UHGV virus genome: UHGV-0120812
Strand: one strand, 5' to 3'
Source of the DNA: a virus
Length of the DNA: 39,670 nt
A program made the position numbers and the translations under genes. Positions within the stretch are counted from its first letter, which is position 1; the number at the start of each line of letters is the position of its first letter. Positions 27,533 through 39,670 of the stretch are shown piece by piece. The notes beneath the pieces are model-generated. The model did no database searches, was not told the origin of the DNA, and saw nothing but the letters and a program-made list of their open reading frames with translations.

Positions 27533-28951
27533 ATGCCGATTCAGCAACTTCCGCTTATGAAAGGTGTCGGCAAAGACTTTCGAAACGCCGACTATATCGA
27601 CTATCTGCCAGTGAATATGCTGGCCACACCCAAAGAAATCCTGAACAGCAGCGGATATCTTCGCTCATTCCCGGGCATTGCCAAACGTTCTGATGTGAAC
27701 GGTGTATCTCGCGGCGTCGAGTACAACATGGCGCAGGGTGCTGTTTATCGCGTGTGTGGTGGCAAGCTGTACAAAGGAGAAAGTGAAGTCGGTGATGTTG
27801 CCGGAAGTGGTCGCGTATCAATGGCGCATGGTCGAACATCACAGGCGGTAGGCGTTAACGGGCAACTGGTCGAATACCGCTATGATGGCACGGTTAAAAC
27901 CGTCTCAAACTGGCCTGCAGACAGCGGGTTTACGCAGTATGAGTTAGGTTCGGTTCGTGATATTACGCGCTTACGTGGGCGTTATGCGTGGTCAAAAGAC
28001 GGTACTGATTCATGGTTTATCACTGACCTTGAAGACGAATCGCACCCTGACCGATACAGTGCACAATATCGGGCAGAATCACAGCCTGACGGCATCATCG
28101 GCATCGGCACATGGCGAGACTTCATCGTCTGCTTTGGTTCATCGACGATTGAATATTTCTCCCTGACTGGCGCAACCACTGTTGGTGCCGCTTTGTATGT
28201 CGCACAGCCATCGCTGATGGTGCAGAAAGGTATTGCCGGAACCTATTGCAAAACGCCATTCGCTGATTCCTATGCGTTCATCAGCAATCCGGCAACAGGT
28301 GCGCCGTCTGTATACATCATCGGCTCCGGTCAGGTGTCACCAATCTCCAGCGCGAGCATTGAGAAAATACTCCGCTCCTACACTGCTGATGAACTGGCTG
28401 ATGGCGTGATGGAATCGCTGCGATTTGATGCGCATGAGTTGCTGATTATCCACCTTCCGCGCCATGTTCTCGTGTACGACGCATCTTCAAGCGCTAATGG
28501 TCCGCAATGGTGTGTGCTGAAAACAGGCCTGTATGACGATGTGTACCGCGCTATCGACTTCATTTACGAAGGCAATCAGATAACGTGCGGAGATAAGCTG
28601 GAATCGGTTACCGGCAAATTGCAGTTCGATATCAGCAGCCAGTACGACAAGCAGCAGGAACACCTGCTGTTTACTCCGTTGTTCAAAGCGGATAACGCCA
28701 GATGCTTCGATCTGGAGGTGGAATCATCCACTGGCGTAGCTCAGTACGCCGATCGACTGTTCCTCTCTGCAACCACTGACGGAATCAATTACGGGCGTGA
28801 GCAGATGATTGAGCAGAATGAACCGTTCGTTTACGACAAACGCGTTTTGTGGAAGAAAGTAGGGCGCATCAGGAAAAACATTGGTTTCAAATTGCGCGTT
28901 ATCACGAAGTCACCTGTCACTCTGTCTGGCTGCCAGATAAGGATCGAGTAA
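27533..28951 (+). CDS. Tail accessory protein (P22 gp10-like)
   Basis: 472 aa, the same length as P22 gp10 and in the same position. Confidence 0.85.
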
Positions 28952-29904
28952 TGGCTGATTCGAATCTCAATGAGCCGGTAATCATTCAGGCTACACGACT
29001 CGACACATCAGTCCTTCCACGCAATATCTTCTCGCAGTCATATCTGCTGTACGTTATCGCACAGGGTACTGATGTTGGTAACGTGGCTAACAAGGCCAAC
29101 GAAGCAGGGAAGGGAGCTTATGATGCACAGGTGAAGAATGATGAGCAGGATGTCACCCTTGCAGACCATGAATCCAGAATTGCTGCTGCTGAAGCAACTC
29201 TCGTCAATCATGAACATAGAATCGCAGCAGCGGAAAGCACTCTTGCAGATCATGAAACAAGGATTACGGCTGCCGAAACAGAGCTGGCTGATCACGAGAC
29301 GCGAATTGCTGCCAATGAATCTGAGTTAGCAAACCATGATGCGCGAATAACTCAGAATACAACCGATATCAACGCACTTGATACCAGGCTCACAGCGGCA
29401 GAGGGAAGTATTTCGACGCTACAAAGCACAGTTGGTGATCACTCAACAAGAATATCTGCGCTTGAGTATGCCACCACGCGCAAGAAATCAGAGGTTGTTT
29501 ACTCAGGAGTATCGGTAACCATTCCAACAGCGCCGACCAACCTTGTTAGCCTGCTGAAAACGCTCACGCCGTCATCCGGGACGTTGGCACCATTCTTCGA
29601 TACTGATAACAACAAGATGGTTGTTTTCAACGAGAACAAAACCCTGTTCTTCAAGCTGTCGATTGTCGGGACGTGGCCCAGCGGAACCGCAAACAGGTCA
29701 ATGCAGCTAACCTTTTCCGGATCTGTTCCTGACACACTGGTAAGCAGTCGCAACTCGGCGACAACAACCGATAACATCCTGTTAGCTACGTTCTTCAGCG
29801 TGGATAAAGACGGCTTTCTTGCCACAAATGGCAGTACGTTAACCATCCAGTCAAATGTGGCGGCGTTTACTGCCACAACCATCAAGATAATCGCGGAGCA
29901 GTGA
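28951..29904 (+). CDS. Tail needle (P22 gp26-like) with C-terminal knob extension
   Basis: 317 aa from [43 protein letters not shown] (gp26 N-terminus), then heptad-like ADHETRI repeats and a roughly 120-aa non-helical C-terminal domain. Confidence 0.85.
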
Positions 29905-32473: not shown

Positions 32474-34317
32474 TGAAAGTAACTGCAAACGGTAAGACAT
32501 TTACCTTTCCTGATGGTACGAGCACCGAAGATATTGGCACCGCCATTGATGAGTATTTTGCTGGTCAGGCTGTTCAGCAACAAACAGTTAATCAGGCCAA
32601 TAATGCACCAACACGGGAAGAACCATCATTGATGCAACAAGCTGGCGATTGGCTCACTGGTGGTCAAAGTGCAGGGCAAATTGCGGAACAGGCTGGTCGT
32701 GGTCTGGTAAACATACCATTTGACGTATTGCAGGGCGGCGCAAGTCTGATTAATGCAATCAGCCAGGGGCTTGGTGGCCCCAAGGTTTTGGACGATGTCT
32801 ATCGTCCAGTCGATCGACCAACAGACCCTTATGCGCAAGCTGGAGAAACAATTGGCGGGTATTTAGTTCCAGGAGTTGGAACGGCAGGAAGCATGGCTAT
32901 TGGATCACTGGCAGAGGCCGCAAATCAGAAAGGCGATTTCGCACAAAATGCAGCTAAAAATGCCGGAGTTAACCTTGCCGCTCAGGGGGTTCTTTCCGCA
33001 GCAGCAAAGGGAATATGGCGTGGAATAACGGCTATAAAAGGTGATATTGCGCCAGAAGTGGCGAAGAAAATTGCCACATCAGAATCGATGGGCGTGACAC
33101 CAATGACATCTGATGTTATCCCGCCGAAAAATGCTTTCACTCGCGGCCTAACTCAGGATGCCGAGGGGGCTTTGCTCGGGACAGGCTCAAAGCGAGCGGA
33201 GCAATATGCAACGCGTAGTAAGCTGGTAAGTAATTATTTTGACCGTTTTGGTGAGTACAACCCTGATGATGTGGTGAAATCTCTTACCACCACGTTAAGG
33301 GGGCGGAAGGATGCCGCTGGCGCTGTTATCAATGACGTCACCAATAAAATGGGTAATGCCGCAGTTGATACCACAAATACCATGAATGCTCTGAATACAG
33401 CGATCGCAAGACAGGAACGGCTTGGGACGTCTGCCAATCAAAGCCTGCTTACATCCTTGCGTAACCTACGTGAAGAATTAGCAAACCCTGCAACTGATTT
33501 GGATGTTACGTTTGATCTCTTGCGTCAGCACAGAACAGCATTTAGATCTAATGTTCAGGGAGATGCTATGGTCTTCCCAAACCAGGCAAAAGCAGCTACC
33601 AATATGGTAGAGAATGCAATGTCAAAAGATCTTCGTAACGCAGTTGCAAAAAACCTCGGTGCATCAGACGCAGCAAAATACCTTAAAGCAAATTCCGATT
33701 ATGCAAACGTTTATAATAAGGTGCTTAATAAAAACATTGCTAACAAGCTCAACAAGGCAAGCAGTGAAGCCAGTCCTGAACTTATAAATACCGTTGTATT
33801 AAGCAGAAAACCATCTGACGTGAAACGAATCTGGAGCGCATTGGATAATAAAGGGAAAGATGCTATGCGTGCAGCTTATGTCAGCAAAATAGCGGAAAAG
33901 GCCGGTGACTCTCCAGCCAAGTTCATCACTGAAGTTAATAAGCTGAAATCTCAGTCAGGCGGTGAAATTTACAACACTATTTTTTCTGGAAAGCACATGA
34001 AAGAGCTTGATTCTCTTCATGAAGTTCTACAGCAAACAGCAAGGTCAGACACCGCAAATGTAGTAACTCAGACGGGGCAATCGCAAGCCAACAGGATAAG
34101 GACGATTGGCGCAACTGCGACTCTTGGCGTATCAATGGGGCTTGAGGCTGGTTTCGGTGCAATGATGCGCTTGTATGAGTCAAAAGCAGCAAGGAATGCT
34201 CTCTTACGTTTGGCAAACACCAAAGCAGGAACACCAGCCTATGAAAGAGCGCTAAATAATGCTGCAAATGCGATACGCCCTATACTTTCAAGCCAAATTA
34301 CAGCAGAACAGCAATAA
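32470..34317 (+). CDS. Ejection protein (P22 gp16-like)
   Basis: 615 aa ORF at the gp16 position and of similar length. Confidence 0.8.
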
Positions 34318-34330
34318 AAATAAGATATAA

Positions 34331-34816
34331 CTATCTGATATTACTGCTACTGTTGCATGTTACCGTGTTTCCAAATCCTGAATTGCAGTTTGTATATGTG
34401 TCAACGCGTGTTGGGTAAGGTTGAGTTATAACAGGCTGGCGCGCTTTTTGCTCGATCGCTTGCATTGTGTTTACAGCCTGATAATTCAATAAAGCCTGCT
34501 GGAATGCTTGGCTTTGTGCTATTTGTTGTGCTTGTTCTTGGCTTTGTAATTGAACATAAAGATTCTGAAGTTCAAGTCTTGCCTGTGTGTCACTTATCTT
34601 GCCTTCATCGACACCTTGCCCGAGCATCTTCGCAGCAAGGACATACAGCTTAGGTGTTGGTGCTGATGCCATGCGAGAGTCGTTCTTCAAGCTGGCATCA
34701 AGGCAATTAGCCATATCGCTAAGCTTTGGATAGCGTTGCTCGCAACTTGCCTGATAGTCGCTTACTTTTGCGCACCCAGCCAGCAGAAGCGGGATAATTA
34801 ACAGTGATTTTTTCAT
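34331..34816 (-). CDS. Lipoprotein, accessory gene (candidate superinfection-exclusion or conversion factor)
   Basis: 161 aa from MKKSLLIIPLLLAGC (signal peptide plus LAGC lipobox); Q-rich helical middle; convergent with gp16. Confidence 0.65.
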   Translation of the reverse strand: MKKSLLIIPLLLAGCAKVSDYQASCEQRYPKLSDMANCLDASLKNDSRMASAPTPKLYVLAAKMLGQGVDEGKISDTQARLELQNLYVQLQSQEQAQQIAQSQAFQQALLNYQAVNTMQAIEQKARQPVITQPYPTRVDTYTNCNSGFGNTVTCNSSSNIR

Positions 34817-34850
34817 ATAATTAACTCTCCTTAGTTTTGCGCAGGATACC

Positions 34851-35216
34851 ATGAAAAAAGTTAACATTGGAAACGTACCAAAGATGCTCGTTCCGCTCTT
34901 TGAGAGCGGTACAATTGTGTTTTGTAGAGACTTTCCAGAATGGCAACGCCTGCATCAAAAACTTGGCGTTGACGTGCATGACTCGGACGCCAACGGAGCG
35001 TCTCATACAATGAGTAGCGAGAATGGTGTTTTGCATGTGATAGGCGTGTTCAATGGCAAACTATCTACTATTGCCCATGAGTGCGCTCACATGGCATTCG
35101 ATATCTGCTCAAGGGTAGGTGTTGATGTTGAACCAGGAAGAGCCAACGAGACTTACTGCTACTTAATGAGCAGGCTTGTTGAGTTCTGCGAGCGACATAT
35201 CAAAAAGCCGGAGTGA
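34851..35216 (+). CDS. Hypothetical protein with HExxH motif (possible small zinc metallopeptidase)
   Basis: 121 aa; AHECAHMAFD contains HExxH; divergent from the lipoprotein gene across a 34-bp gap. Confidence 0.55.
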   Translation: MKKVNIGNVPKMLVPLFESGTIVFCRDFPEWQRLHQKLGVDVHDSDANGASHTMSSENGVLHVIGVFNGKLSTIAHECAHMAFDICSRVGVDVEPGRANETYCYLMSRLVEFCERHIKKPE

Positions 35217-35229
35217 CCCGGCTTGATTA

Positions 35230-35409
35230 TTACTTTTTGCTGTCTGGAGTTCGCTTATCCAATACCCAGCCATGACCTGGCTTTGTTGTTGGTGGAAGCC
35301 TTTCGTTGTCCTTGACGGTTGCAAAATTGTCTTTCTTACCGCCGCGTGGGCCAACTTCTTGGTATATTCCGCCGTTTTTTCCTGTGTTTTCACCTGGTTT
35401 TTTCGCCAT
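35230..35409 (-). CDS. Hypothetical small Gly/Lys-rich protein
   Basis: 59 aa MAKKPGENTGKNGGIYQEVGPRGGKKDNFATVKDNERLPPTTKPGHGWVLDKRTPDSKK; GAGGT RBS 7 nt upstream; hairpin plus T-run downstream. Confidence 0.45.
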   Translation of the reverse strand: MAKKPGENTGKNGGIYQEVGPRGGKKDNFATVKDNERLPPTTKPGHGWVLDKRTPDSKK

Positions 35410-35508
35410 GATATACCTCAACATACACCCGTTATTGGGCGATTAAATATTGATCTCATTTTATAAGTAGTCAATATGGCCCAGGTAAATGCAAAAATTA
35501 ACCCACCT

Positions 35509-35760
35509 TCAGGTGGGTTTTTTGTACAAATCCTTCAGCGTATCAAACACCATCTTCTTAACAAGCTCTGACTGCTCATCAGCGATGCGTTCCGCATCGT
35601 CTCGATAGCCTGAAATTTTGGATGGCTTTGATACAGCATCAGTCACTATCTGAACTAATTCTGAATTAAGAGAGCGGCCATTGGATTTGGCTCGCTGTTT
35701 TAGTTTTTCCTTTAATTCGTAAGGTAGCCGCAGATTAAATTGCGGGTCATCTCTTCCCAT
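35509..35760 (-). CDS. mnt: Mnt repressor (ribbon-helix-helix, Arc/MetJ family)
   Basis: 83 aa; DDPQFNLRLPYELKEKLKQRAKSNGRSLNSEL...YRDDAERIADEQSELVKKMVFDTLKDLYKK resembles P22 Mnt. Confidence 0.85.
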   Translation of the reverse strand: MGRDDPQFNLRLPYELKEKLKQRAKSNGRSLNSELVQIVTDAVSKPSKISGYRDDAERIADEQSELVKKMVFDTLKDLYKKPT

Positions 35761-35820
35761 TCTTGATGCCTCGCTTTTGTGAGTGGATCGGCATCTTATT
35801 ATCTGCTGATTGCATCCTCA

Positions 35821-35841
35821 ATAAGACCACGGTGGTCGTAT
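35821..35841. promoter_or_regulatory. Mnt-operator-like palindrome
   Basis: ATAAGACCACGGTGGTCGTAT, a near-perfect 21-bp palindrome with the CACGGTG centre, between mnt and the tailspike gene. Confidence 0.65.
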
Positions 35842-35907
35842 TTTTTTGATTAATAATGCATCACTGCGGCAATGCTGCGGCGATTCCTTGTATCTGGAGC
35901 AAATTAA

Positions 35908-38046
35908 ATGACAGACATTACAGCCAATGTTGTAGTGAGCATGCCTTCGCAACTCTTCACTATGGCGCGTTCTTTTAAAGCCGTAGCTAATGGCAAAATT
36001 TATATCGGTAAAATTGACACTGACCCGGTAAATCCTGATAACCAGATTCAGGTCTATGTTGAGAACGAAGATGGTTCTCACGTTCCTGTTGCACAGCCAA
36101 TCGTCATCAATGCCGCTGGGTATCCAGTATATAACGGACAGATTGCCAAGTTCGTAACTGTGCAAGGCCATTCTATGGCTGTTTATGATGCGTATGGTAC
36201 ACAGCAGTTCTATTTTCCGAATGTGCTGAAGTATGACCCTGATCAACTACGGCAGCAATTAGAAGACCCGGATGGAGCTAAAAAATATCCTGAATTGCAG
36301 ATATCTCGGTGGAGGGACGATTGTGATGTAAGAGGGTGGGGGGCAAAAGGCGATGGTATAACAGATGATACATCTGCATTGATCTTGGCTGCAGAATATG
36401 CACGAGAATCATCCAGAACATTACGAGCGGAAGGTAATTTTATTATTACGGAGACATTAAATCTTCGTAATGTCAGCCTCGAAATGACCAATGCTGTTTT
36501 TACCATATCCCACTCAGGAATAGGGGTATTGCTTGGCGGGAATGCATCAAACCCTAACAACCCAAGACAAAACTTCGGAACGATTATCAGAAATTCTGGT
36601 ATTTCATCTGAAACGACACCGGATATTCGTATTATCGGGGCAAAAGGGCAGCATATAAACATTGAGCGTTGCGACTACTTACAGTTATATGCAAATTATA
36701 ATGCTTCGGTGGCATCGACGGATTATTCAATAGCATACTCAACCTTTAACCTGAAAAAGGTCGATACAATTCATTTTCTTGGAGTTGAGAAAGGATGGAT
36801 AAATGAAAACTATTTTTATCTGAATCGTACGAATAATATCATTTTCGCTGATAATCCATATCATCATAACCACAATAAGTTTTATGGTGGAACTATGGAG
36901 GGGGCAGGTAAAATTGATATTCAAAGAGGTGATAACAATTACTTCTACGGGTTTCGTTTTGAACGATATCCATCATCCCCAACTAACCAACAGTTGATAA
37001 TTAACTTTGGTGAATATACGTGGAATAACTCAATTGAAGCTACATGGCTTTCATCTCCTGCGTATACAAATGAGCCATACAATCCATCGCCTTACACTTA
37101 TGTCGAGGTAACTGATAATGGCAAGGGGAATGCAGTATTTCATATTCAGGAAAATATATCCGATGAAGTAACATTGTTTTCTTTAAATGCTAACACCCCA
37201 TTTATATCCAGTGCTAACAATGGAGAAGTTGGTGCATTAGCATATCAAACAGATGTTGATGGTTTATATAATATCCGTCACCTGGTTTCTTCTAAGTTTG
37301 CTTTTATGCGGAATTTTGGGTTGTTATGGGAATCTGGAGATGTACCAGTAAGAAATGGTGATATGTTTACATTCTCAGCAGATACGGCATCGTTTCGCAT
37401 TTACCTGTATGCATTAGATAGAGATGGGAATGTCATAACCTCACAAACAGAAGCCATAACTTCTTCTATGCAATGGGATTCTGCCAACCATAGGTATGTC
37501 ACTGCTGTTAATATTTCTTCCATTAAGATCAGGATTAATAATGAAGGGGTTCCAGTTAGTGCAATTCGTTTAGCTGTGTATTCTGGTGGTAATGTAGTGA
37601 ATACTGCATTTTCATGGCTATGCTTTACTGGTAGATATTACAAAAATAGCACATCCTTACCAAGGAAAAGTAAAAATACTTTTACTTTAAAACAAGGGAA
37701 AGCACTTACTTATTATAGTGATACTGATATTAGTATGGCTAACATTGGTTCAGGAATTACCTGTTATAAAACCGATTTATCTGAACTCAAAATTAATCTT
37801 GTAAGGGGCAGGTATGTAGTGAAATCGATTTCAGGTAGTGAAATATATGTATACCAAGGAACAATCACTTATTACCCTCCACTCAGTGATATCAAATTGG
37901 TATATACGGATGGGATTGAAAATAAATTATTAGATGTGCAAAGCATCTCTTCAGGAAAGATTACTCTTGCAGATACAGTACCATCAGCTATATCTGCAGG
38001 CGATTTTGTAGATGTTATTGTTACAAAGACGAAATCTATTTTATGA
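35908..38046 (+). CDS. Tailspike: P22-type head-binding domain plus divergent beta-helix-like receptor-binding domain (candidate polysaccharide depolymerase)
   Basis: 712 aa; first ~113 residues [43 protein letters not shown]...NVLKYDPDQ match P22/HK620 tailspike N-termini; remainder unrelated to P22 and AT-rich. Confidence 0.9.
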
Positions 38047-38080
38047 TGTGTTTATTTATCCTTATGTTAAAGGAGCGATA

Positions 38081-38368
38081 ATGGATATAACACCTTTCCT
38101 TCATGCGTTTTGTGCTGTGGCTGCGCAGGTACTGATTGGTCTTTTTACCGGAAACTGGGCTTACGGTGCGATAGCCGGTTGTACGTTCTTCATTGCGCGT
38201 GAACACACCCAGGCAGAATATCGCTGGACAGAAAGGTTTGGGAAAGGGAAACGTATCAACATGCCGTGGTGGGGCGGTTTTGATCCGCGCGTGTGGGATG
38301 TGGGAAGTCTGTTGGATTTTTCTTTCCCAATTATCGGATGCTTATTGGTATGGATTCTTGCATCGTAG
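38081..38368 (+). CDS. Hypothetical small membrane protein between tailspike and integrase
   Basis: 95 aa from MDITPFLHAFCAVAAQVLIGLFTGNWAYGAIAGCTFFIA...; AAGGAG RBS 7 nt upstream; two predicted TM helices. Confidence 0.6.
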   Translation: MDITPFLHAFCAVAAQVLIGLFTGNWAYGAIAGCTFFIAREHTQAEYRWTERFGKGKRINMPWWGGFDPRVWDVGSLLDFSFPIIGCLLVWILAS

Positions 38369-38462
38369 CGAACACATAATTACCGATGAAACAAAACTGA
38401 GACACACAAAGCTTTGCACTGGATTGCAAGGCTTTGTTCTCTTCGATAGTGGTTAAGGTGGA

Positions 38463-39620
38463 TTACTCCACCTTTTCATCAATCCAGTCAGCCCACCACT
38501 GCATCATTTCTCTGCGCTTATCGAGATACTGAGCATGGTTGTAAATTCCGCGCACAGATCCGCCGTTGGCATGTGCCAGTTGCACTTCAATAGCATCAGC
38601 GGGCCATTCGTGCTCGTTCATAATCGTGCTGAATTCATGCCTGAATCCGTGACCGCTTTCCAGACCCTCATAGCCTATTTGTTTGATCACAAGCAATACC
38701 GCGTTCTCGCAGATTGGCTTCTTCTTATCGTTGCGCCCGGCAAAAACAAACTCTGATACTGGTTTGGTGATGGAGCTTAGCGTAGTGAGAAGTTCAATAA
38801 CCTGGTCCGACATCGGAACCACATGAATCTTGCGTCCCTTCATCACATTGGCGTCGATGGTGATAATCCCGTTTTCAAAATCGACGTTCTTCCATAGCAT
38901 GGAACGAAGCTCTTTTGTTCTGAGGGCTGTGTAGCGTAAAACTTTGGTCGCAATGAGCGATACGATACTTCCTGAAAATGTTGCCAGTGCTTTGTTGAAT
39001 GCCGGGATCTGGTCTGCTGGAAGAAACGGGAAGTTCTTCTTGCGGTATCCCTTCATGGCGTCAGCAAGGTCAGGTGCCGGGTTGTATTTAGCCCTTCCGG
39101 TGACAATAGCGTAACGGAAAACTTCGCCGCATCTTCTGCGGGCTTTGTTGGCTCGCTCCATTGCACCGCGATCTTCAAACCTGCGGATTACTTCCAGCAG
39201 TTGCATCGGCTCAATATCCTGAATCTCAAGACCGCCGATGATGGGTAAAATGTCGTCATCAAACATTTTGGCAAGTTCAGTCGCATACCCTACTGACCAT
39301 ACTTGCTTCTTGTGCTCGTACCATTCTTTGTAAATCGCACTAAAGGAATTGTTGTTAGACGAAGCCTTTTTCGCCTTTACCGGATCGATGCCAACCGAGA
39401 TGTCTTTCCTCGCAGTCCATGCCTTATCCCTTGCCTCCTGCAAAGTCATTAGCGGATATTTTCCTACGGTCAGGACTTTCTCCTTACCGTCAATCTTGTA
39501 GCGAAGCTGCCATACCTTTTTCCCTGATACAGGGACATAAAGGTACAGGCCATTACCATCGAGTAGGCGGTATGGTTTTTCTTTCGGCTTAGCTGCTTCA
39601 ATCTGCTTAACGGTGAGCAT
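38463..39620 (-). CDS. intS: Tyrosine integrase, P4 family (N-terminal arm-binding domain)
   Basis: About 385 aa from MLTVKQIEAAKPKEKPYRLLDGNGLYLYV...; C-terminal HGFRHEF and VQLAHANGGSVRGIYNH catalytic motifs; resembles KplE1 IntS as recalled. ORF-track GTG at 39656 is an alternative start. Confidence 0.9.
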   Translation of the reverse strand: MLTVKQIEAAKPKEKPYRLLDGNGLYLYVPVSGKKVWQLRYKIDGKEKVLTVGKYPLMTLQEARDKAWTARKDISVGIDPVKAKKASSNNNSFSAIYKEWYEHKKQVWSVGYATELAKMFDDDILPIIGGLEIQDIEPMQLLEVIRRFEDRGAMERANKARRRCGEVFRYAIVTGRAKYNPAPDLADAMKGYRKKNFPFLPADQIPAFNKALATFSGSIVSLIATKVLRYTALRTKELRSMLWKNVDFENGIITIDANVMKGRKIHVVPMSDQVIELLTTLSSITKPVSEFVFAGRNDKKKPICENAVLLVIKQIGYEGLESGHGFRHEFSTIMNEHEWPADAIEVQLAHANGGSVRGIYNHAQYLDKRREMMQWWADWIDEKVE

Positions 39621-39665
39621 GGGTAAAAATCCGGTGGGTAAAATTATTTTATCCACTTTTTACCC
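39621..39665. promoter_or_regulatory. Clustered GGGTAAAA/TTTTACCC motifs upstream of int (candidate Int/RDF binding sites of the att region)
   Basis: GGGTAAAAA at 39621..39629, GGGTAAAA at 39636..39643, inverted TTTTTACCC at 39657..39665; TTTTACCC recurs at 36..43 and 48..55. Confidence 0.5.
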
Positions 39666-39670
39666 GTCAT

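Follow-up and report, generated by a model that had tools for sequence, protein, structure and literature searches.

The stretch of DNA considered here, the 39,670 nucleotides (nt) of UHGV virus genome UHGV-0120812 (the window), is a P22-like prophage, and this report concerns its tailspike gene and the receptor-binding module that the gene encodes. The tailspike open reading frame (ORF) occupies 35908..38046 on the plus strand and specifies a protein of 712 amino acids (aa). Residues 1-113 (35908..36246, plus strand) are the head-binding, or particle-attachment, domain, as delimited by Pfam PF09008, by PDB matches and by identity to a sibling prophage in E. coli MB1159. The Pfam Head_binding match to these residues scores 223.8 bits against a cut-off of 24 (E 4.5e-67), and the PDB entries 7sg7, 8tvr and 1lkt are also matched, as is proper to the N-terminal region, about 110 residues long, of P22-like tailspikes. 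In PDB sequence searches Sf6 gp14 (7sg7) matches residues 1-118 (E 1.9e-64) and the P22 tailspike residues 1-117 (E 1.4e-50), each ending there. The first-pass annotation of this DNA, made from the sequence alone, had described residues 1 to about 113 as an almost exact match to P22 and HK620. That description holds for HK620, with 90.8% DNA identity across nt 1-335 of the gene, and equally for Sf6 gp14, with about 92% identity over residues 1-113 as counted from the alignments, but it was overstated for P22 (about 76%).

Similarity to P22, Sf6 and HK620 ends at about residue 114. Complete divergence beyond residue 113 or so, as first claimed, is what is seen against these three phages, but not against the CUS-3 endosialidase tailspike and phage 720R6, with which DNA identity of about 87-90% (nt 1-470) continues through residue 157. 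This additional similarity, residues 114-157, covers the linker and the first rung of a beta-helix. The helical linker or neck itself, residues 114-144 (36247..36339, plus strand), corresponds to predicted helices at residues 2-34 of the structural model described below; it is shared with CUS-3, 720R6 and PF18668-type tailspikes, recurs in tailspikes with different N-termini, and forms the 5' recombination joint of the gene. One further match reaches across the joint: PDB 9vvr_A, an 843-aa "tail spike protein" with 18 chains, aligns with residues 113-254 (36253-36660; E 2.8e-15), spanning the linker and the first beta-helix rungs. A literature search found no paper naming PDB 9VVR.

The remainder of the protein was examined in a structure predicted by AlphaFold2 for residues 111-712 on the basis of 51 homologues (mean predicted local distance difference test score, pLDDT, 90.4; predicted template modelling score, pTM, 0.79). 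The model shows the helical neck, a right-handed beta-helix from about residue 149 to 430, and then two beta-rich domains, so that the beta-helix proposed at first pass is indeed the predicted fold, with about 10 or more rungs in a single chain. In gene coordinates the right-handed parallel beta-helix, residues ~145-430 and the putative catalytic domain, lies at 36340..37197, the first C-terminal beta-sandwich domain, residues ~456-580, at 37273..37647, and the second, residues ~599-712 with the stop codon, at 37702..38046, all on the plus strand. The second sandwich domain is delimited by the model and by alignment to Dep-ORF8 of Pasteurella multocida phage PHB02, which reaches the last residues of the tailspike; it carries conserved CYKxDLSExKINLVR and C-terminal TKTK motifs.

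Conservation within the 51 homologues also outlines a candidate active site at 36796..36963 (plus strand), made up of invariant polar residues on successive rungs. Down to 22% identity, Y277, W297, E300, Y318, N323, E331, R350, E352 and N374 are invariant, and the motifs WINEN (W297, E300), YxHNHNKF (Y318, H320, N323), GTMEG (E331) and RFER (R350, E352) fall on consecutive rungs, with N374 just downstream of the cluster (36.9-37.0 kb). This is the pattern that would be expected of an active-site groove. Three glutamates and one arginine would suit a hydrolase with a Glu/Glu pair as well as a lyase assisted by Ca2+ with Arg as base, and the top fold neighbours include hydrolases and lyases alike. 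PDB searches with the module, both as a single sequence and as a 51-sequence profile, gave hits to nothing but the N-terminal domain and the first rung (GAKGDGxTDDT), with no informative catalytic homologue. Pectate_lyase_3 (PF12708) stays below its gathering threshold in the tailspike, with no match at E<=1; it is present in distant homologues, of which the family profile matches only the GAKGDGxTDDT start.

Base composition changes within the gene. Against a GC content of 0.473 for the whole window, the head-binding part has 0.437, the linker 0.473 and the stretch 36340-38046 0.365 (0.28 at third codon positions, GC3); the module is AT-rich as the first-pass annotation had said. The best match to the prophage chassis is that of E. 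coli MB1159 (O25b:H4-ST131), which bears a different tailspike; BLASTN aligns 34001-36245 of the window with the MB1159 prophage at 99.6% identity and 38393-39670 at 96.2%, with no match between. The cassette exchanged relative to this sibling is therefore 36246..38392 (plus strand; breakpoints 36245/38393) and consists of residues 114-712 together with a small 95-aa ORF. The start of the divergent module, placed at 36253 in the first-pass annotation, is within 8 nt of the breakpoint. A non-P22 prophage of strain S87, adjoining yfgI and having a different, 771-aa tailspike, has 36340-38320 in common with the window at 97.2% identity. At 93-97% identity the module is found fused to PF09008 and to PF18668 as well as to the S87-type N-terminus, and the PF18668 fusion (module 93-94% identical) sits on a 59.7-kb contig with an SU10-type portal. 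The horizontal acquisition suggested at first pass is well supported by the 11-point drop in GC, the sharp breakpoints against the sibling, and the occurrence of the module at no less than 93% protein identity on PF09008, on PF18668 and on an unrelated N-terminus of the 771-aa type. The best-supported reading is that cassette exchange occurs among temperate and probably lytic phages, and the locus offers a clean natural example, with breakpoints that are known to a few nucleotides and a cassette that recurs on three phage chassis or more.

More distant relatives of the module, at 34-46% identity, are fused to PF12571 (Aeromonas) and to PF27114 (Pasteurellaceae prophages). Among deposited phages the closest match is the unannotated tailspike of Vectrevirus PDP21P3 and PDP21P6 (48% identity over 96%), which, unlike the window prophage, are lytic Autographiviridae; the next are P. 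multocida phages PHB02, Pa7, Pmp1, ZA29 and F108 (31%) and Vibrio phages (28%). The best match to a characterised protein is that to PHB02 Dep-ORF8 at 31%, and near-identity to a characterised tailspike, which would have spoken against a distinct module, was not found. The tail-fibre module family phrog_18162 matches the tailspike at E 3.9e-300. A profile search of 1.84 billion representatives returned 498 clusters (50% identity) at E<=1e-30, and upwards of 150 of these match the complete module; so large a family presumably comprises many specificities. A scan of genome contigs recovered no more than four loci, all distant ([Haemophilus] felis, Actinobacillus ureae, Pigmentiphaga and Paenibacillus). 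In metagenomes the module is also found in its entirety within very large proteins, of 3561, 2688 and 1780 aa, and so is not limited to short tailspikes.

By BLASTP, PHB02 gp17 aligns with tailspike residues 133-711 at 31% identity (E 5e-79), over the whole module and with all conserved motifs (WINEN, HNHN, RFER and those of the C-terminus), such that homology to the Dep-ORF8/phrog_18162 family extends over the full length of the module, the beta-helix and both C-terminal domains included. PHB02 gp17 is a 968-aa tail fibre corresponding to the 109.6-kDa Dep-ORF8, the recombinant form of which was shown to produce translucent spots at nanogram doses on each of 31 tested P. multocida strains of capsule type A but not on mutants deleted for the capsule, and which was described as serogroup A-specific (PMC6090149). 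Dep-ORF8 differs from the window tailspike in its T7-type gp17 N-terminus, in host genus and in the low identity of the module, and, the family being large, its substrate need not carry over. The capsule of P. multocida type A is hyaluronan, the C4-epimer analogue of the chondroitin backbone. A parallel between hyaluronan for Dep-ORF8 and chondroitin of the E. coli K4 capsule for the window module is suggestive but weak, because identity is 31% and the family is large.

That the host-surface specificity of the module could not be read from its sequence, as the first-pass annotation had stated, is true of the sequence taken alone; comparison of host genomes nevertheless gives a strong lead, to capsule loci of the K4 family. 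Module DNA of at least 96.5% identity was searched for in 5,426 complete E. coli genomes, and kps region 2 was inspected host by host. The module is present in 15 of these genomes, and 14 of the 15 carry a K4 or K4-like locus with a homologue of the K4 chondroitin polymerase, as compared to about 70 (at most 110) of the 5,426 overall. This occurrence in hosts of one capsule family is correlative. The hosts include O166:H15, MS14385, ST131-like, dog and prawn isolates, one of them from blood, and they have the module on two prophage chassis. Two other genomes with a diverged copy of the module, similar over its first 900 nt only, also carry a K4-like locus.

Several distinct loci are represented among these hosts. 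Region 2 of MS14385 encodes an epimerase, a KfoB-like protein, a 690-aa bifunctional glycosyltransferase family 2 (GT2) protein, a pyruvyl-transferase-family protein, a UDP-sugar dehydrogenase and a KfoG-like GT2; the 690-aa protein matches the E. coli K4 chondroitin polymerase (PDB 2Z86) with 1124 bits. When all 5,426 genomes were searched, this region was found at 80% coverage or more in 45, comprising 27 of the same type and 18 of a second type that has 86.9% DNA identity to it and no pyruvyl-transferase gene, and whose polymerase is 86% identical to that of MS14385 and EC11. The 45 include eleven of the 15 genomes that bear the module, with MS14385 and EC11 having the first type and nine the second. 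Strain 23CRST013 carries the K4 locus proper, its KfoC being 100% identical to PDB 2Z86, and PEC011, the tailspike module of which is 100% identical to window 36253-38046, has the same locus, present in just 20 genomes. The kps locus of S87 (NZ_CM151376.1 1871777-1889065; 21778-39066 of the extracted region) was found in one of the 5,426 genomes. Its genes are a KfoB-like one, one for a bifunctional GT2 57% identical to KfoC, ugd and a KfoG-like one, with no 4-epimerase ORF, and its product may be an E. coli capsule of glycosaminoglycan-like type that has not been described; the S87 genome carries the tailspike module at 97.9% all the same.

K4-like loci are a recognised group (PMC13171598), and KfoC is described as making the chondroitin backbone of N-acetylgalactosamine (GalNAc) and glucuronic acid (GlcA) (PMC7764085). 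In the MS14385 type the pyruvyl transferase family gene (28487-29614 of the extracted region) takes the place of K4 kfoD, I, E and H, and the other K4-like type has no accessory genes at all. To judge from gene content, the three loci probably decorate a common backbone differently. Module alleles that are 99.9-100% identical are found in K4-proper and K4-like hosts alike, which suggests recognition of the shared backbone, or else tolerance of the side groups. A literature search on MS14385, and on PDP21, the host of the closest deposited phage, gave no useful paper.

Taken together, these findings make it probable that the tailspike is a capsule-specific depolymerase for K4-family, chondroitin-type capsules, with its specificity provided by a cassette-acquired module on a P22-like prophage. 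Residues 1-113 would attach the tailspike to the phage tail in the manner of P22 and Sf6, and the helical linker (114-144) would connect this domain to the recombination-acquired module of beta-helix (~145-430) and two beta-sandwich domains (~456-712). The module would bind and depolymerise the group 2 capsule of the K4 family, its proposed substrate being the backbone GlcA-beta1,3-GalNAc-beta1,4 made by a KfoC-type polymerase. We infer that cleavage, whichever the bond and chemistry, would take place in a groove lined by E300, E331, R350, E352, Y318, N323 and N374 on successive rungs, and that capsule degradation would let the virion tunnel to the outer membrane. Movement of the module as a cassette is envisaged, bounded at its 5' end by the linker and at its 3' end by a small membrane-protein ORF, both of them conserved.

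A P22-like prophage with capsule specificity has its direct precedent in CUS-3, from E. coli K1 strain RS218. CUS-3 likewise resides at argW, has a backbone that matches 45% of the first 25 kb of the window at 97% identity, and combines a P22-type head-binding domain and linker (87% DNA identity over nt 1-470) with a part that targets a group 2 capsule and not the O-antigen. However, that part is an endosialidase for polysialic acid, unrelated after residue ~157 to the beta-helix and two beta-sandwich domains of the window tailspike, and a C-terminal chaperone domain of the endosialidase type is not detectable in the latter. A Pfam search found no Peptidase_S74 domain (PF13884) in the tailspike; that domain is present in other head-binding tailspikes that have only the linker in common with it.

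Several points weigh against assignment to the K4 family. The K4 polysaccharide is branched with fructose, accessory genes vary among the K4-like loci, and S87 is without a 4-epimerase gene, so that one enzyme would have to tolerate all of these differences. The Fisher p for enrichment of K4-family loci is 1e-26 to 1e-23, a significance that is overstated since the genomes are not phylogenetically independent. Beyond Head_binding, Pfam and NCBIfam match nothing in the tailspike, catalytic domain included, and similarity to Dep-ORF8 at 31% identity, within a family of 498 clusters, tells little of substrate. W46 (NZ_CP163115.1; 1476-16807 of the extracted region) is the sole exception among the hosts, having a glycerophosphate-type, K2-like region 2. 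Its region-1 products (kpsF, E, D, U) are identical to those of MS14385, suggesting a capsule switch after lysogeny, which could plausibly have come about by recombination.

W46, a host with the module and no K4-like locus, also speaks for a different explanation, namely that the module has hitch-hiked in lineages having K4-like loci and that its true receptor is another surface structure. The clonal bias of complete genomes points the same way, with near-duplicate hosts in 100117/100248 and AST20/AST240. Against this, four distinct K4-family loci are involved, one of them existing in a single genome (S87), on two prophage chassis and in unrelated backgrounds and sources (O166:H15, ST131-like, dog, prawn), and the hosts have no O type in common; hitch-hiking is accordingly considered unlikely. 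A separate alternative is an O-antigen-specific endoglycosidase like the tailspikes of P22, Sf6 and HK620, with which the window tailspike has in common the head-binding domain (76-92% identity) and the general arrangement, a beta-helix behind an N-terminal adaptor, and most characterised P22-like tailspikes do cut O-antigen. Yet no similarity to those O-antigen endoglycosidases extends beyond residue ~114, and the O types of the module's hosts differ. The O166 O-antigen cluster, taken from host JNE070796, was found in 18 genomes overall and in three of the 15 module-bearing ones, with no match in the other 12; O166 genomes without a K4-like locus are without the module, and within the O166 lineage the module occurs on both chassis (P22 type in AST20 and AST240, S87 type in JNE070796). 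It is thus the K-locus, not the O type, that the module tracks, and with CUS-3 showing that P22-like prophages can be capsule-specific, O-antigen specificity appears highly improbable.

It might also be that the K4-family capsule is recognised without cleavage of the glycan, by a pure adhesin or a side-group esterase. This would account for the host distribution equally well, but three Glu, one Arg and several Asn, Tyr and His on adjacent rungs, invariant to 22% identity, are typical of an active site, and the homologue Dep-ORF8 yields spots of an enzymatic type at very low doses (PMC6090149), which makes such a function quite unlikely. The preferred reading, depolymerisation of K4-family capsules, can be extended, more tentatively, to the family as a whole. 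The module could possibly be the E. coli member of an unclassified beta-helix family that depolymerises unsulfated glycosaminoglycan-type capsules (the chondroitin backbone in E. coli, hyaluronan for the Pasteurella phages), is unrelated in sequence to PL6, PL8, PL16, the K5 lyase and GH56, and tolerates side groups, the last because identical alleles occur in K4-proper and K4-like hosts. With the family profile at E<=1, no sequence relation was found to the K5 lyase KflA/ElmA, which acts on the heparosan capsule, or to chondroitinase B (PL6).

The architecture, fold and modular exchange of such tailspikes were already known, and the predicted K4-family receptor appears to be the new part; no K4-specific phage enzyme or K4-family specificity was found in the searchable literature. 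Were the reading as a glycosaminoglycan-capsule family correct, this tailspike would be the first K4-specific phage depolymerase defined by sequence, and it might serve as a tool for obtaining chondroitin oligosaccharides. Capsules of the K4 and K4-like types are found in extraintestinal pathogenic lineages, and a confirmed chondroitin-backbone depolymerase could serve in capsule typing, in anti-capsule therapy and, with the biotechnological K4 polymer as starting material, in making defined chondroitin oligosaccharides.

The surroundings of the gene are those of a Lederbergvirus-type prophage integrated at argW. The first 25 kb of the window are 95-97% identical, over 35-57% of their length, to Kapi1, E212, Gally and CUS-3. 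The tailspike lies at the late-operon end of the P22-like genome, beside immI (mnt/arc) and the integrase: an Arc/Mnt repressor gene (35509-35760) precedes it, and an IntS-type tyrosine integrase gene (38463..39656, minus strand; Pfam Phage_integrase and Arm-DNA-bind_3) follows, marking the prophage end at the argW attachment site. In the annotations of the near-identical prophages of PEC011 and MB1159, intS is followed by tRNA-Arg (argW) and yfdC. The whole prophage was present in none of the complete E. coli genomes searched.

The 95-aa membrane-protein ORF of the cassette (38081..38368, plus strand; GC 0.49) belongs to phrog_1443 (E 1.2e-53), a family of unknown function of which phage 21 carries a member annotated as "putative membrane protein". 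It lies inside the segment shared with the S87 prophage and is absent from the MB1159 sibling. Members also follow unrelated tailspikes in Gally, JEP4, HZ41, 611R6 and various lambdoid phages, and the ORF is read as the conserved 3' flank of the module and not as its partner; its candidacy as a module-specific specificity partner or lysogenic-conversion gene was rejected on these grounds. An upstream ATG at 38012 would lengthen this ORF to 118 aa, overlapping the tailspike stop. At the other flank, the CUS-3 "boundary sequence" bsq1 was considered as the intragenic junction and rejected, because it proved to be intergenic sequence that precedes the tailspike gene.

Between the DNA-ejection genes and the Arc/Mnt repressor, 34331-35424 holds three small ORFs, of 177 aa (minus strand) and 121 aa (plus strand) with no Pfam match and of 63 aa with weak similarity to YjzC; the block is 99.6% identical in the MB1159 sibling, and these may be moron or accessory genes. 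Two antisense ORFs inside the tailspike gene, 35818-36246 (minus strand, 142 aa) and 36243-36662 (minus strand, 139 aa), are probably spurious.

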